Source: Bacillus sp. OV322 (GTDB taxonomy: Bacteria > Bacillota > Bacilli > Bacillales > DSM-1321). Taken from it: 24,000 bases of DNA. The stretch covers positions 123,510 through 147,509 of the forward strand of contig NZ_FOMA01000003.1 of NCBI RefSeq assembly GCF_900112495.1, written 5' to 3'. This document shows, piece by piece, positions 2,921 through 12,030 of this stretch. The position numbers were made by a program, and so were the translations under genes. The stretch's first letter is position 1. Each line of letters begins with the position of its first letter. A model generated the notes under the pieces. The model was given only the letters and a program-made list of their open reading frames with translations, made no database searches and had not been told where the DNA came from.

Positions 2921-4060
2921 ATGAGTAAACGTGATTTTTACGAGGTATTGGGAGTGTCGAAAAGTGCTTCCAAAGATGAAATAAAGAAAGCATACCGCAA
3001 GCTTTCCAAACAATATCATCCTGATATTAATAAAGAAGCAGATGCGGCAGACAAGTTCAAGGAAATCAAGGAAGCTTATGAAGTACTGAGCGATGAACAA
3101 AAGAAAGCCCATTACGACCAGTTTGGACATACAGACCCTAATCAGGGCTTTGGCGGTTTTGGCGGCCAGGACTTTGGCGGCGGCGGTTTTGGCGGGTTTG
3201 AAGATATCTTCAGCACGTTCTTTGGCGGCGGCGGTGGCGGCAGAAGGAGAGATCCAAATGCACCAAGGCAGGGTTCAGATCTTCAATACACCATGACTCT
3301 TTCTTTTGAAGAAGCTGTTTTTGGCAAAGAAACGGAAATTGAAATCCCGCGTGAAGAAAATTGCGATACTTGCCACGGAACAGGTGCAAAGCCTGGCACT
3401 AAGGTTGAGACATGTTCGCACTGCCACGGAACAGGGCAGCTGAATGTAGAACAAAATACACCAATCGGGCGGATTGTGAATCGCCGCACCTGCCATCATT
3501 GCCAGGGAACTGGAAAGATCATTCCGAATAAATGTTCAACATGCCACGGAGCAGGCAAGGTACAAAAACGTAAAAAAATCAGCGTAAAGGTTCCGGCTGG
3601 TATTGATGATGGCCAGCAGCTGCGCGTTTCAGGCCAGGGCGAACCAGGTGCAAACGGCGGTCCTGCAGGAGACTTATACGTCGTATTTAACGTTCGCGGT
3701 CATGAATTCTTCGAGCGTGACGGAGACGATATTTACTGTGAGATGCCAATAACCTTTACTCAAGCAGCTTTGGGTGACGAAATAGAAGTACCAACCCTGC
3801 ATGGCAAGGTAAAGCTTAAAGTTCCTGCCGGGACGCAAACAGGCACTCGTTTCCGCTTGAAAGGAAAAGGTGTTTCCAATGTCAGGGGTTATGGCCAAGG
3901 AGACCAGCATGTGGTCATTTTGATTGTTACACCGAAAAAATTAACTGATAAACAAAAGCAATTGCTTAGGGAGTTCTCTGAAATCAGCGGTCAATCTGCA
4001 CCTGATGAACACGAAGACGGCTTCTTTTCAAAAGTAAAGCGTGCCTTTAAAGGCGAATAA
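2921..4060 (+). CDS. dnaJ: co-chaperone DnaJ (Hsp40)
   Basis: 379 aa. J domain with HPD (YHPDIN), a G/F-rich linker, and four CxxCxGxG zinc motifs ([32 protein letters not shown]). Confidence 0.97.
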
Positions 4061-4077
4061 GGGGAGAGTTTTGCAAT

Positions 4078-5019
4078 ATGAAGTGGTCAGAACTAACAAT
4101 CCACACAACAAATGAAGCAGTAGAGCCAGTTTCCAATATTCTGCATGAAGCAGGTGCCAGCGGGGTCGTCATTGAGGACCCTGCCGATTTGGTAAAAGAA
4201 CGGGAAAATGTTTTCGGTGAAATCTACCAGCTAAATCCTGCGGACTATCCGCAGGAAGGTGTAATCCTGAAAGCCTATCTGCCTGTCAACAGCTTTCTCG
4301 GCGAAACGGTAGAGGAGATCAAGGACGCAATCAATAATCTTCTCCTTTTTGATATCGACCTTGGAAGAAATTCTATTTCAATCAGTGAAGTGAATGAAGA
4401 AGAGTGGGCAACTGCCTGGAAAAAGTATTATAATCCCGTAAAAATTTCGGAAAGATTTACAATCGTTCCGACATGGGAAGAATATACACCAGTCAAGAGC
4501 GACGAACTTATCATCGAGCTTGATCCGGGAATGGCATTTGGAACAGGTACACACCCTACGACTGTTATGTGCATCCAGGCACTTGAGCGAACAGTAAAGC
4601 CTAATGACAGGGTTGTGGATGTCGGCACAGGCTCTGGTGTTCTGAGTATTGCGGCGGCTATGCTAGAAGCCCAAAAGGTTCAGGCGCTGGATCTCGATAT
4701 CGTTGCTGTTACTTCAGCAAAGCTGAACGTGAAGCTCAATAAGGTGCAGGATATTGTTTCTGTCACCCAGAACAATTTGCTTGATGGCATCGACGAAGCC
4801 GCTGATGTGGTTGTTGCCAATATCTTAGCGGAAGTCATCATTAGATTTACTGATGATGTAGCTAAAGCAGTAAAACCAGGCGGATATTTTATCGCATCAG
4901 GAATCATTCAGGCTAAAAAGCAGGATGTAAAGGATGCAATTAGCGCCTCCGGATTTACCATTGAGGAAACGATTCTAATGGAAGACTGGGTTGCGCTGAT
5001 TGCCAAGAGAAATCATTAA
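4078..5019 (+). CDS. prmA: ribosomal protein L11 methyltransferase
   Basis: 313 aa with the PrmA-typical motif [15 protein letters not shown] and SAM-binding motif [13 protein letters not shown]. Conserved position after dnaJ (B. subtilis yqeT). Confidence 0.93.
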
Positions 5020-5082: not shown

Positions 5083-5832
5083 ATGCAGCGTTATTTTTTG
5101 AGGAAATGTGATGTTGAAGGAAATACTGTAACCATTTCCGGAGATGATTTTCATCATATTACCCGTGTCATGAGAATGGAAGCAGGCTCAAAAATTATTG
5201 CGGTTACAGAGGATGGACAAGCAGGTGTTTGTGAAATAACAAATATTGCCAGCGATTCGGTGATCGGTAACGTTATAGAATGGAAGCATGAAGAAAAAGA
5301 ACTGCCCGTTTCTGTAACCATTGCGAGCGGTCTGCCTAAAGGGGATAAATTGGAGTATATCGTCCAAAAAGGCACGGAACTAGGTGCAGCAGAGTTTATC
5401 CCTTTTATTGCGGCCCGTTCCGTCGTAAAATGGGATCAAAAAAAAGCCGGCAAAAAAACAGAGCGCCTGCAGAAAATTGCAAAGGAAGCGGCTGAACAAT
5501 CGCACCGCACAATTTTGCCGAATGTGCAAGAACCAGTTTCTCTTACGGAGCTTGCGAACCTTGGTGGATTCCATGTGAAGCTGATAGCATTTGAAGAAGA
5601 AGCAAAGCGGGGAGAAACCAGCATATTAGCCTCATTACTTGGCAAGGCAGAGCCCGGACAGAGAATTTTATTTGTCTTTGGTCCTGAGGGCGGCTTGTCA
5701 GAGGCTGAAATTGAAAAGCTAAGCGCTGCAGGGTTTATTTCTTGCGGGCTTGGGCCAAGGATATTAAGGACAGAAACAGCACCGCTATATGCATTAGCGG
5801 CTGTATCTTATCATTTAGAATTATTGAGGTGA
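5083..5832 (+). CDS. rsmE: 16S rRNA (uracil1498-N3)-methyltransferase RsmE
   Basis: 249 aa starting MQRYF. It carries GLPKGDKLE.I.QK.TELG, FGPEGG and LGPRILR.ETAPLYAL, as in B. subtilis YqeU/RsmE. Confidence 0.92.
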   Translation: MQRYFLRKCDVEGNTVTISGDDFHHITRVMRMEAGSKIIAVTEDGQAGVCEITNIASDSVIGNVIEWKHEEKELPVSVTIASGLPKGDKLEYIVQKGTELGAAEFIPFIAARSVVKWDQKKAGKKTERLQKIAKEAAEQSHRTILPNVQEPVSLTELANLGGFHVKLIAFEEEAKRGETSILASLLGKAEPGQRILFVFGPEGGLSEAEIEKLSAAGFISCGLGPRILRTETAPLYALAAVSYHLELLR

Positions 5833-7400: not shown

Positions 7401-8072
7401 ATGAGCCAAAATGTAGCAGGCATAATAGATCACACGCTGTTAAAGGCAGATGCAACAAAAGAACAAGTAAGAATTCTATGCGAGGAAGCTAAAGAGCACC
7501 ATTTCTTTTCTGTCTGCGTAAACCCGACATGGGTCAAATATGCGAGCGAATTGCTTCAAGGTTCAGACGTTAAGGTTTGTACTGTAATCGGTTTCCCTTT
7601 AGGAGCCAACACACCTGAAACGAAAGCGTTTGAAACGAAGAATGCAATTGAAAACGGTGCACATGAGGTTGATATGGTCATTAATATCGGCGCTCTGAAA
7701 GACAAAGACAATGAAGCGGTGAAAAAAGATATCCAGGCAGTTGTTGCAGCTGCAACTGGCAAAGCACTGACAAAGGTTATTATCGAAACTTCTTTGCTTA
7801 CTGAAGAAGAAAAAGTGCGCGCTTGTGAAATTGCTGTTGAAGCAGGTACTGACTATGTGAAAACCTCAACTGGTTTCTCAACTGGCGGAGCCACTCCGGA
7901 GGATATCGCATTAATGAGAAAAACAGTAGGACCGGATATCGGCGTCAAAGCTTCAGGCGGCGTGCGCAATACTGAAGATGCCAATAAAGTAATCGAAGCA
8001 GGAGCAACCAGAATTGGTGCTAGTGCGGGTATTGCGATCATTAAAGGGCTTACTTCGGACTCTGACTACTAA
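7401..8072 (+). CDS. deoC: deoxyribose-phosphate aldolase
   Basis: The likely start is ATG 7401 ([15 protein letters not shown]), after AAAGGAG. It has class I aldolase motifs, with Schiff-base lysine context DYVKTSTGF and a later VKASGG. About 223 aa. Confidence 0.93.
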
Positions 8073-9490: not shown

Positions 9491-9937
9491 ATGAGTCTTC
9501 TCGAGCGTTTAAATAATGATATGAAACAAGCGATGAAGGACAAGGAAAAGGATAAACTCTCTGTCATCCGCATGCTTAAAGCTTCCCTTCAAAACGAAGG
9601 AATTAAGCTTGGCAAGCAGGAAATGACAGCAGAAGATGAATTGACAGTGCTCTCTCGCGAATTAAAACAACGCAAAGACTCCCTCCAAGAGTTTGAAAAT
9701 GCAGGTCGAATCGATCTCGTGGATAAAGTCCGAACCGAAATAGGATACGTTGAGGCATATATGCCAGAGCAACTTTCAGAGGATGAAATTTCTTCAATTG
9801 TTGCATCAACAATTGAAGAAGTTAACGCATCATCTAAAGCTGATATGGGTAAAGTTATGGGAGCGCTTATGCCGAAGCTAAAAGGCAAAGCGGATGGTTC
9901 AATCGTTAATAAACTGGTGCTTGAACGCCTTTCATAA
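9491..9937 (+). CDS. yqeY: GatB/YqeY domain-containing protein
   Basis: 148 aa ([24 protein letters not shown]..) matching the YqeY family. Conserved pairing with rpsU. Confidence 0.9.
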
Positions 9938-9953
9938 TTCTATACCTGACTAT

Positions 9954-9988
9954 AAACCGCAGGCAATGCAAATTGTCTGCGGTTTTTT
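9954..9988 (+). terminator. rho-independent terminator after yqeY
   Basis: 14-bp stem AAACCGCAGGCAAT / ATTGTCTGCGGTTT (one G-U pair), loop GCAA, then a T-run. Confidence 0.9.
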
Positions 9989-10039
9989 AGTAAAGAGAAA
10001 TGAATGAATATTCACTTATTTTATCCCTTTGAATTATGG

Positions 10040-10290
10040 GTTTTGTTTTCTGAATCCAGCTTCAGCGCCTAGCCCGCTGAGGCCTGCAGGATGCAGGTCA
10101 TGAAGGCGTTTCTGCAGGATGCAGAGGGTTTAGCCTTCGGTCCCTAAAAGATGCTTTGACCTAAGAAGGAAAGCCGCCTTCTGAGTTCAATGTCCTATTT
10201 GCTTAGGCCCCAGGATGGGGGTCACAAAGACGTTGCCGCAGGACGCGGCGCTCTTAGTCTTTGATCCTCTGCCAGGCGCTTACGCTTTTA
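10040..10290 (+). repeat. GC-rich structured intergenic repeat, long form (R1)
   Basis: Two roughly 65-nt arms (10081-10147 and 10206-10270) are direct repeats, about 68% identical by hand alignment. They flank a central hairpin, 10161-10169 / 10177-10185. The core is homologous to 17615-17679. The terminal motif GCGCTTACGCTTTT resembles GCACTTAATGCTTTT in R2. The boundaries are approximate. Confidence 0.6.
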
Positions 10291-10435
10291 TTATTCATGA
10301 AACTTTTTTGTTTTACAGATTTCCCGAACGGGAATGCCCACTCCTTTAGGTGTGGTGCTTCAAGTATCTGAAAGTTCTACTTAACTTCATTAATATTCCG
10401 TGGTAGTTTAATTATAAAACTAATACAATAAATGG

Positions 10436-10806
10436 ATGAATGAGTATAGAAGAACAAACACAACCGTATCATTAATTAACTATCATTTTGTCTTTTGTCC
10501 TCGATACAGAAGAAAAATATTCATTCGTGGTGATGTAGAGACACGCTTCAAACAGTTGGTAAAGGAAATATGTATGTTTCTAAACGTCCTGCCAACACTT
10601 AGCCCTGCCGATACGATGGCAAAAATTAAAGGAGTGACATCAAAAAGTTGAGAGAGGAATTTCCTCATCTTCAACACCTGCCAAGTTTATGGACACGTTC
10701 GTATTTCGTTTCTACCGTAGGAAATGTATCAAGCGAAACCATCAAGCAATATGGGAACAACAAAAAACAAGGGAGTGAAACAATGCTGCAAACGCTAACA
10801 GTCTAG
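10436..10806 (+). pseudogene. tnpA: IS200/IS605 Y1 transposase TnpA, inactivated
   Basis: The N-terminus MNEYRRTNTTVSLINYHFVFCPRYRRKIF is typical TnpA. After ..LVKEIC the HUH (HxH) segment is missing, indicating an internal deletion. The frame then shifts at the A-run near 10641-10645 (..KGVTSK|KLREEFPHLQHL) and again near 10678-10681 (PSLWTRSYFVSTVGNVSSETIKQY). Confidence 0.85.
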
Positions 10807-10812
10807 ATTAAA

Positions 10813-11859
10813 TTGCTTCCAACTAAAGAACAAATTCAATTATTAAAACAAAGCAGCCACGAATACATTAAAGTGATTAACACACTTGTAATAGAAATGG
10901 TTGAAGCAAAGAAAAGCACAAAGAAAACAACAAAAGATGTGCCTGCAATTCTGCCGAGTGCGGTTAAAAATCAAGCGATTAAAGACGCTAAAAGTGTGTT
11001 CCAAAAAGTAAAAAAAGCTAAATATCAAATCGTACCTGTATTAAAGAAACCTGTTTGCGTCTGGAACAATCAAAACTATTCTTTTGACTTCACGCATATT
11101 TCGATTGCGTTTATAGTGAACGGCAAATCAACTCGCTTGAAGGTTCGAGCGTTGCTCGTAGATAAAGATAACCGTAATTTTGATTTGTTGAAACACAAAT
11201 TAGGCACACTTCGTATCACGAAAAAATCAAATAAGTGGATTGCCCAAATATCTGTCACCATCCCTCTAGATGAGAAACCAGGGACCAAAATTATGGGTGT
11301 AGATTTAGGTTTAAAAGTCCCTGCTGTTGCCGTGACAGATGATGAAAAAGTACGTTTCTTTGGCAATGGCAAGCAAAATAAATATATGAAGCGGAAGTTT
11401 CGCACCGCACGCAAGAAATTAGGCATTAAAAAGAAATTGAGTGCAATTCGACAACTTGATGATAAAGAACAAAAATGGATGAAAGACCAAGATCATAAAG
11501 TAAGTCGTGCAATCGTCGATTTCGCAAAAGACCATAATATTTCTGTCATTCGTTTAGAACAACTAACGAATATCAGACAGACGGCAAGAACAAGCCGTAA
11601 AAACGAAAAAAATCTCCACACCTGGTCATTTTATCGCTTGGCTCAATTTATTGAATACAAAGCAGCTCTAGTCGGCATTCGCGTAGAATACGTGAACCCC
11701 GCCTACACAAGTCAAACGTGCCCAACTTGTACAGAAAAGAATAAAGCCAAGGACAGAAAATATGTTTGTAATTGCGGATTCAACAAACACAGAGATCTAG
11801 TCGGTGCAATGAATATTCGTTATGCACCTGTGGTTGATGGTGACAGTCAACCAGCCTAA
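10813..11859 (+). CDS. tnpB: TnpB-family RNA-guided endonuclease (IS605 OrfB), with original N-terminus interrupted by an in-frame TAG
   Basis: 348-codon open frame with the RuvC triad contexts GVDLGLK, IRLEQL and HRDLVGAMNI, and zinc finger CPTC..CNCG. The ancestral start is ATG 10783 after GGGAG: MLQTLTV-TAG(10804-10806)-IKLLPTKEQ. TTG 10813 has no RBS. Confidence 0.85.
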   Translation: MLPTKEQIQLLKQSSHEYIKVINTLVIEMVEAKKSTKKTTKDVPAILPSAVKNQAIKDAKSVFQKVKKAKYQIVPVLKKPVCVWNNQNYSFDFTHISIAFIVNGKSTRLKVRALLVDKDNRNFDLLKHKLGTLRITKKSNKWIAQISVTIPLDEKPGTKIMGVDLGLKVPAVAVTDDEKVRFFGNGKQNKYMKRKFRTARKKLGIKKKLSAIRQLDDKEQKWMKDQDHKVSRAIVDFAKDHNISVIRLEQLTNIRQTARTSRKNEKNLHTWSFYRLAQFIEYKAALVGIRVEYVNPAYTSQTCPTCTEKNKAKDRKYVCNCGFNKHRDLVGAMNIRYAPVVDGDSQPA

Positions 11860-12030
11860 GATGCTACACGCACTGTCTTAGGAGGGGTAATGAGATACCC
11901 TCACCTTGAAGGCTGTTCAAAACAGAAATGGACTGCGAACGATAAGTCATTCAAGAATCCCACCCGCCACACAGCAAGGTGTAGGGCTTGCGGCTTTAGC
12001 CGTGGGAGTCTCAAATACGTAATAAGTAGG
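11830..12030 (+). ncRNA. putative omega-RNA (right-end element RNA) of TnpB
   Basis: By analogy with characterised TnpB systems, the guide RNA derives from the tnpB 3' end plus RE. Hairpins lie at 11882-11903, 11914-11926 and 11987-12006, with long-range TCCCAC (11958-11963) / GTGGGA (12002-12007). The guide would be the flank from 12015. The extent is not determinable from sequence alone. Confidence 0.35.

Follow-up and report, generated by a model that had tools for sequence, protein, structure and literature searches.

The question raised by this locus is whether four short hairpins, each presenting GGA in its loop, constitute a gene for a small RNA (sRNA) that titrates the RNA-binding protein CsrA. 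The hairpins are located between yqeY and the nfeD-floA operon in a 24,000-nucleotide stretch of the genome of Bacillus sp. OV322 (contig NZ_FOMA01000003.1, positions 123,510 to 147,509). This whole stretch is hereafter called the window, and coordinates given without a locus number refer to it. In an initial annotation of the window, the segment 10081-10250 was interpreted as a CsrB/Rsm-like module for CsrA binding. The region consists of two tandem copies of the Bacillaceae-1 motif (RF01690), which form the core of a composite repeat of about 240 bp; this assignment is practically certain.

Identification of the four-hairpin region

Scanning of the whole window against Rfam at the gathering threshold gave exactly two matches, both to RF01690 and both on the minus strand. 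The scores were 73.9 bits for 10083-10149 and 75.7 bits for 10207-10273, against a threshold of 35, and each match covered model positions 1-67 of 67. The four hairpins described in the initial annotation are all present in the plus-strand sequence, as follows.

10083-10097, plus strand, hairpin H1, CCTGCA-GGA-TGCAGG
10111-10125, plus strand, hairpin H2, TCTGCA-GGA-TGCAGA
10208-10220, plus strand, hairpin H3, CCCCA-GGA-TGGGG
10235-10249, plus strand, hairpin H4, GCCGC-AGGAC-GCGGC

Since Rfam models the opposite strand, these four GGA hairpins correspond to two minus-strand Bacillaceae-1 modules with RUCCU loops (AUCCU, AUCCU, AUCCU and GUCCU, respectively). On the plus strand the sequence CAGGAYG starts at 10087, 10115, 10211 and 10239, and all four sites fall in loops. 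The differences between the arms that had been described as compensatory are real, and so is the invariance of GGA among the four loops. The two arms, each of 67 nt, are indeed diverged copies, but they are identical at 42 of 67 positions (63%) in an ungapped comparison, and not at about 68% as first estimated. Likewise, the hairpins lie inside the extent originally proposed, 10081-10250, but the element reaches from about 10056 to 10292, and a third helix in each arm (P1), enclosing the second hairpin, had been overlooked (10101-10107/10133-10139 and 10225-10231/10257-10263). A module pattern with 22 specified bases gave two matches in the window and none in 100 shuffles, even when three mismatches were allowed; the four-hairpin arrangement is far beyond chance.

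Bacillaceae-1 was described by Weinberg et al. in 2010 from 149 representatives, and its two identical loops were taken to suggest a homodimeric protein partner (PMC2864571). Gardner and Eldai (NAR 2015) reported that the reverse complement of the motif strongly matches the CsrA-binding motif of RMfam, proposed that this reverse complement is a CsrA-binding sRNA of Bacillales, and noted that the discoverers of the motif had been unsure of its strand (PMC4333381). In BSGatlas, eight copies are listed for B. subtilis, all of which were missing from every prior annotation resource for this species. In the literature that could be searched, no experiments taking up the link between CsrA and Bacillaceae-1 were found. 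The motif has been in the catalogue since 2010 and its connection to CsrA appeared in print in 2015, so that the object and, as a hypothesis, its reading were already known. Bacillaceae-1 is an orphan family, to which no function has been assigned since 2010.

Architecture of the composite repeat

Family-wide counts, here and below, rest on at least 119 loci collected by a pattern scan with one genome per species. Since both loops and some of the stem bases were prescribed by this pattern, certain alignment columns are biased, in both directions. A profile search of the listed loci with nhmmer gave 166 copies of the 67-nt core. For the composite repeat, an alignment was made of the window element and six other two-module elements (L001, L096, L110, L117, L112 and L082), which come from the locus L001 and from Peribacillus sp. 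B-H-3, Bacillus sp. MUM 13, Bacillus sp. SD088 and two Lederbergia species. All seven share a layout of about 240 nt, consisting of a left arm (CCAGCTnCAGCGCCTAG...GAGG), module a, a central hairpin, module b and a right arm (AAGGCGCTTnCGCTTTT). The parts of the window element are the following.

10056-10082, plus strand, left arm of the composite (type I) repeat, CCAGCTTCAGCGCCTAGCCCGCTGAGG; nearly invariant in seven dimer elements from at least four genera
10083-10149, plus strand, Bacillaceae-1 module a, comprising H1, P1, H2 and a UCC tail; RF01690, 73.9 bits
10150-10206, plus strand, spacer with the central hairpin AGAAGG-AAAGCCG-CCTTCT (10164-10182), conserved in position
10207-10273, plus strand, Bacillaceae-1 module b, comprising H3, P1, H4 and a UCC tail; RF01690, 75.7 bits
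10274-10292, plus strand, right arm, AGGCGCTTACGCTTTTATT; GGCGC-TT-N-CGC-TTT invariant in the seven dimer elements

The AGCGCCT of the left arm (10064-10070) is the 5' half of a closing stem, AGCGCCT/AGGCGCT (10064-10070/10274-10280), predicted by RNAalifold from the seven-element alignment. The right arm gives the 3' half of this stem (10274-10280) or, alternatively, a small hairpin followed by a T-run. The weak hairpin and T-run recorded in the initial annotation at 10276-10289 are present, and the repeat contains them as a conserved component. In a terminator scan of 9850-10450, this site (10274-10287, a weak 5-bp hairpin plus T-run) was the sole terminator-like one; hairpin and T-run taken together span 10274-10296. 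Compensatory changes were found in every internal helix of the dimer alignment, with double changes in 22 of the 61 pairs predicted by RNAalifold, and in the copies from Lederbergia and from Bacillus sp. SD088 the central hairpin, too, has changed in a compensatory way.

The composite architecture recurs in genomes of Peribacillus, Lederbergia and Bacillus. The composite repeat is non-coding and non-autonomous. The polarity of the type I flank is fixed relative to the core, the left arm being forward in 51 cases and reversed in none, and the right arm forward in 68 and reversed in two; the right arm was found downstream of the core, in forward orientation, in 53 of 155 copies. Units are arranged head to tail at recurrent spacings of 124-132 nt. 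The 67-nt core itself sits in at least four unrelated flank families, each with its own closing stem. The hairpin plus T-run is specific to the type I flank and was not found in the other flank types.

The locus L001 (GCA_042672225.1) is collinear with the window and encodes a YqeY protein identical to that of the window. At the same intergenic site it carries three tandem composite units (3572-4125) against one in the window (10056-10292), and its middle unit keeps the arms and the central hairpin and has no Bacillaceae-1 cassette. Recombination evidently lengthens and shortens the arrays and exchanges their modules. This evidence speaks for a cassette that is carried as a passenger by several composite repeats of unrelated type, and not for a stand-alone sRNA gene.

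Distribution and genomic context

The initial annotation was right to place the element in a dispersed repeat family, as indicated by the at least 119 loci and the 166 copies among them. The listed loci span Bacillaceae, Planococcaceae, Lentibacillus, Virgibacillus, Oceanobacillus, Amphibacillus and one Paenibacillus, and include B. subtilis; several loci are present per genome in, for example, Peribacillus sp. B-H-3 and Lysinibacillus sp. RC46. The copies are strictly intergenic and multi-copy. With respect to the neighbouring genes, 43 copies are co-oriented with both, 40 are anti-oriented to both, 28 lie between convergent genes and 12 between divergent ones.

No recurrent transposase or other mobilising gene was found within 1.5 kb of about 120 loci. 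Neighbouring genes were considered as possible mobilisers and rejected, as the largest clusters were only ABC-F ATPases, Mfd and spurious open reading frames across the repeat. Around the window copy, no duplication of the target site can be seen. In one row each of B. subtilis and B. licheniformis (NC_000964.2/318464-318931 and NC_006270.3/1209976-1210443), nearly the same terminator hairpin stands on both sides of the element, which looks like a long target duplication or an insertion at a terminator.

Bacillaceae-1 cassettes were also observed on two contigs of the IMG/VR viral collection (L002, 9137-9203; L003, 680-746, 7848-7914 and 7939-8005), one of which carries an inverted pair of cassettes 91 nt apart. 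In B. subtilis DE0224 (L092), a cassette at 5350-5416 is located 5 nt from the epsC motif RF01735 (5226-5345) and is opposite to it in Rfam strand, so that the GGA strand is co-oriented with the eps leader element and directly follows it.

The strand under structural selection

On balance, the strand under structural selection appears to be the GGA (plus) strand, contrary to the orientation of the Rfam model. This judgement is drawn from base-pair statistics and predicted folding energies. A pair that reads G·U on the plus strand reads A·C or C·A on the Rfam strand. Counted over the annotated stems of about 156 distinct copies, there were 82 such pairs, against 21 that read G·U on the Rfam strand. 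After single-linkage clustering at 92% identity, cluster-by-column events gave 60:20 (p = 9e-6), and the clustered ratio was 33:17 (p = 0.03) when the two outermost P1 pairs were left out. At two further positions, which would extend P2 and P3, the Rfam strand has C·A or A·C, equivalent to U·G or G·U on the plus strand, in 151 and 135 of 157 copies, respectively, and the minority states at these positions were Watson-Crick pairs. The bias toward G·U on the plus strand was the same in all gene contexts (30:9 for co-oriented, 26:6 for anti-oriented and 23:5 for mixed copies), indicating that it is not a by-product of the direction of host transcription or replication. In agreement with these counts, the RNAalifold energy of the seven-sequence alignment was -83.2 kcal/mol for the plus strand and -72.0 kcal/mol for the minus strand, a difference of 11 kcal/mol in favour of the plus strand. 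The choice of the GGA strand in the initial annotation is thus favoured both by the G·U statistics of about 155 copies and by the predicted energy.

Every stem column contains several types of Watson-Crick pair among about 130-156 copies. The unpaired nucleotides of the core are also strongly conserved, the internal-loop and linker sequences GGUCA, CGUUG and CUUAG being as conserved as the loops.

Cassettes at the ends of rRNA genes

Among the retrieved loci, ribosomal RNA (rRNA) genes were present only in L111, from Peribacillus sp. SCS-155. One cassette of this locus (2819-2885) ends 10 nt before the mature 5' end of 16S rRNA, and a second (7787-7853) starts 6 nt past the 3' end of 23S rRNA, both being in the UCC orientation relative to the rRNA. 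The survey of rRNA ends was therefore based on the alignment of Weinberg et al. 2010 (PMC2864571, supplementary file 94), in which 25 rows abut the 5' end of 16S rRNA, 12 in the UCC orientation (B. pumilus, for example) and 13 in the GGA orientation (B. subtilis, for example).

Search for an independent sRNA gene

A CsrB/RsmZ-type sponge would be an independently transcribed and regulated plus-strand sRNA gene (about 10056-10292), the four GGA hairpins of which titrate CsrA. In its favour are the four CAGGAYG loops on the strand preferred by G·U pairs, the conserved small hairpin and T-run at the 3' end, and the matches to the CsrA motif of RMfam (Gardner and Eldai, PMC4333381). The further results point the other way. 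Neither CsrB or CsrC nor RsmX, RsmY or RsmZ gave a match in the window at the gathering threshold of the Rfam scan. The initial annotation had itself remarked on the lack of a convincing sigma-A promoter after the yqeY terminator, and indeed none was found upstream of the element on the plus strand in a scan of 9850-10450. Among 159 copies, 17 had a sigma-A-like promoter within 150 nt upstream, and the same number, 17, was obtained for the opposite strand, indicating no enrichment and no promoter conserved elsewhere in the family. Some of the type I left arms are preceded, at a distance of about 25 nt, by an A/T-rich box resembling TAAAAT, which was considered as a promoter and rejected, as it has no matching -35 sequence and is not general. 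T-rich runs downstream were somewhat more frequent, and closer, on the GGA strand (113 against 88, at a median of 42 against 62 nt, for the same 159 copies), and most of this excess consists of the conserved UCCUUU tail together with the type I right arm.

The element has only four GGA sites, against the 13-22 cited for CsrB and CsrC, and the Bacillaceae-1 unit is scattered in both orientations and in rRNA leaders. The initial annotation had named equal occurrence in the two orientations as a refutation of its proposal, and the copies were found to be nearly equally divided, both with respect to neighbouring genes (43 against 40) and in 16S leaders (12 against 13). The absence of the eight B. 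subtilis copies from annotations made before BSGatlas argues against abundant discrete sRNAs. The sponge-gene reading is not supported, and we regard it as very improbable.

A DnaA box was also examined as a feature of the repeat and rejected, since the perfect sequence TGTGGATAA occurs only in L008 and L066 among about two dozen real type I first units. In these two loci, from Neobacillus terrae and B. subtilis, it is located about 31 nt (L008, minus-strand 4819) and about 32 nt (L066, minus-strand 6692) upstream of the left arm. Weaker versions of the box containing GATAA are present in L011, L044 and L091.

Proposed mode of action and alternatives

We tentatively propose, at somewhat less than even chances, that the cassette acts through its GGA strand as an RNA module that is passively transcribed. 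A cassette without its own promoter would be transcribed only passively; in the window, transcription would take place by read-through of the yqeY terminator or within the leader of the downstream nfeD-floA operon. In RNA, the GGA strand of each cassette would fold into a three-helix module, and a pair of identical CAGGAYG loops at a spacing of 28 nt would be offered by it to a dimeric partner that binds RNA; the closing stem together with the hairpin and U-run would stabilise or end the host transcript as a 3' or 5' structure. The best available candidate for the partner, and the sole one named, would be CsrA. Binding of CsrA by read-through RNA is possible. Physiological binding of CsrA by the Bacillaceae-1 cassette is rather unlikely, and a shade less likely is the broader proposition that GGA-strand cassettes provide high-affinity sites for CsrA, or for another homodimeric RNA-binding protein, across the untranslated regions and rRNA leaders of Bacillales.

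A number of observations weigh against this GGA-strand RNA module. Besides the missing promoter in the window and the lack of promoter enrichment in the family, the 40 copies antisense to both neighbours may never have their GGA strand transcribed. G·T pairs are tolerated in hairpins of single-stranded DNA as well, so that the strand bias is no proof of RNA. The same leader position is occupied in opposite orientations in close relatives, which weakens a strand-specific sponge function, and this flip of orientation in 16S leaders is not predicted by an RNA function of one strand. A loop variant, CACGAUG, in which GGA is replaced by CGA, recurs in independent lineages and in rRNA-leader copies (L118, 1316-1382; L063, 5656-5723; L114, 5794-5860; L106, 7214-7280; L023, 3453-3519; L084, 4842-4908), and in the L118 copy both loops carry it. 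The conservation outside the loops is far beyond the need of a string of CsrA sites and is not explained by CsrA binding. Finally, in the papers on B. subtilis that were consulted, the CsrA antagonist is the protein FliW and not an RNA. A pseudoknot between the GGA loops and the UCC tail was considered separately and found no support, because the CGA loop variants have no compensating changes in the tail.

The repeat could instead be a selfish or neutral DNA element similar to BOX, repetitive extragenic palindrome (REP) or miniature inverted-repeat transposable element (MITE) sequences, the hairpins of which act in single-stranded DNA, either in mobilisation or in template-switch copying by a host-encoded activity. 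RNA effects such as stabilisation or termination would then be a by-product, and there would be no dedicated protein partner such as CsrA. We consider this possible but unlikely. It agrees with the multi-copy, strictly intergenic occurrence in both orientations, convergent sites (28) being more common than divergent ones (12); with the modular head-to-tail arrays, which differ in unit number between near-identical loci; with the existence of armed units without Bacillaceae-1; with the closing inverted repeats in every flank type; with the locus-specific terminator hairpin that recurs to either side of the element in the two B. subtilis and B. licheniformis rows; and with the absence of a conserved promoter. 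The independence of the strand bias from host-gene direction also fits an intrinsic strand-specific intermediate of single-stranded DNA. However, there is neither a transposase nor a recurrent gene near about 120 loci, and no target-site duplication is visible at the window copy. Furthermore, the 67-nt core, including its unpaired nucleotides, has been kept across families of Bacillales while the flanks have not; conservation beyond the usual range of selfish repeats, which is the genus or species, points to a conserved cellular partner. The RNA module could also reside on the strand modelled by Rfam, as minus-strand RNA with RUCCU loops acting in trans or in pre-rRNA leaders and trailers, either bound by a protein homodimer or paired to AGGA-type (Shine-Dalgarno-like) sequences, and possibly linked to rRNA processing. 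This orientation was modelled by Rfam and by Weinberg et al. 2010, both rRNA-flanking cassettes of L111 and the 12 Weinberg rows including B. pumilus are co-oriented with rRNA in this sense, and the closing stem of the composite repeat has three G·U pairs on this strand. In contrast, the G·U statistics favour the other strand by 4:1 to 3:1, the alifold energy of the Rfam strand is worse by 11 kcal/mol, the 13 rows abutting 16S rRNA that include B. subtilis are oppositely oriented, and the authors of the family were themselves unsure. For the window copy, the minus strand runs antisense to the genes on either side, and its sole promoter-like site (9966-9937) is downstream of the element on that strand and so cannot drive it. 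A function of the Rfam strand is, on these data, improbable.

Setting of the repeat in the window

The repeat is positioned 3' of the terminator of yqeY and is followed by the nfeD-floA genes, which form the downstream operon. The neighbouring features are listed below.

9491-9937, plus strand, yqeY, the upstream gene (given for context only); Pfam YqeY, E = 2e-52
9957-9988, plus strand, intrinsic terminator of yqeY, CCGCAGGCAAT-GCAA-ATTGTCTGCGG followed by TTTTTT; read directly from the sequence
10318-12015, plus strand, IS200/IS605-type insertion sequence, outside the element; Pfam Y1_Tnp fragments and TnpB

The yqeY terminator was not listed by the terminator scan. The IS200/IS605 element is inserted directly after GTTTTACA, 45 bp to the right of the repeat. 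The collinear locus L001 lacks this 1.7-kb element, which inserted recently and does not belong to the repeat. A tie between the repeat and this adjoining insertion sequence was ruled out, as it is absent from L001 and no homologue of tnpA or tnpB is found near the other copies. Its tnpA is degenerate, the two fragments corresponding to Y1_Tnp profile positions 1-37 and 80-118 with the middle missing. Its tnpB (10813-11859) is intact and is followed by a non-coding tail of 156 nt, which could encode a guide (omega) RNA.

Significance of the finding

If the cassette binds CsrA, Firmicutes would have a first RNA that acts as a partner or antagonist of this protein, and an abundant orphan family of Rfam would be explained. 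If such CsrA sites are indeed scattered over the genomes, they would amount to a level of Csr control exerted by dispersed RNA sites, in a phylum for which FliW, a protein, is the only known antagonist, and the Rfam family would have been modelled on the wrong strand. The window copy offers nothing beyond the other copies of the family. What is added here is quantitative evidence for selection on the strand opposite to that of the Rfam model, the architecture of the cassette as a passenger, and the finding that the mature ends of rRNA are abutted in either orientation. Together, these three results narrow which experiments are worthwhile.

Comparison with known systems

The closest known element is Bacillaceae-1 (RF01690) itself. 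The arms in the window match the model over its full length at about twice the gathering score, with the same three helices and two identical terminal loops, and a Bacillaceae host, a variety of gene contexts and tandem occurrence are common to both. No structural difference was found, and the window element is a member of the family; the strand analysis favours the reverse complement of the modelled strand. The idea of the initial annotation is the same as that of Gardner and Eldai (PMC4333381), in which the GGA-loop hairpins of the reverse strand are a candidate CsrA antagonist in Bacillales. Their proposal rests on the motif match alone, while the strand is supported here by the G·U asymmetry; the promoter, orientation and rRNA-leader data argue, however, against a dedicated sponge gene. 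The second family that was proposed as a CsrA binder in the same paper, TwoAYGGAY (RF01731), has two hairpins with AYGGAY loops, but differs in fold and in taxon (Clostridia and gut metagenomes), and gave no match in the window.

CsrB and CsrC as well as RsmX, RsmY and RsmZ of Gammaproteobacteria share with the window element the repeated CAGGA(U/A/C)G and the exposure of GGA in hairpin loops. The sequence CAGGAYG is the repeat of CsrB, and the 28-nt spacing of the loops is within the range bridged by a CsrA dimer. No homology was found, however, between these sRNAs and the window element, which has four sites against about 5-22 in the sRNAs, lacks a dedicated regulated promoter, is highly conserved in the scaffold between the loops and belongs to a repeat dispersed in both orientations.

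In organisation, the element resembles the BOX repeats of pneumococci and the REP sequences and bacterial interspersed mosaic elements (BIME) of enterobacteria. All are built of short, hairpin-rich modular units (an arm, a variable number of cores and an arm), are intergenic, are often located at the 3' ends of genes in both orientations, and form arrays that expand and contract. The differences are that the core in the window is conserved across families of Bacillales and not within one species, that neither a REP-associated tyrosine transposase (RAYT)-like nor any other transposase accompanies Bacillaceae-1, and that its covariation indicates a selected fold.

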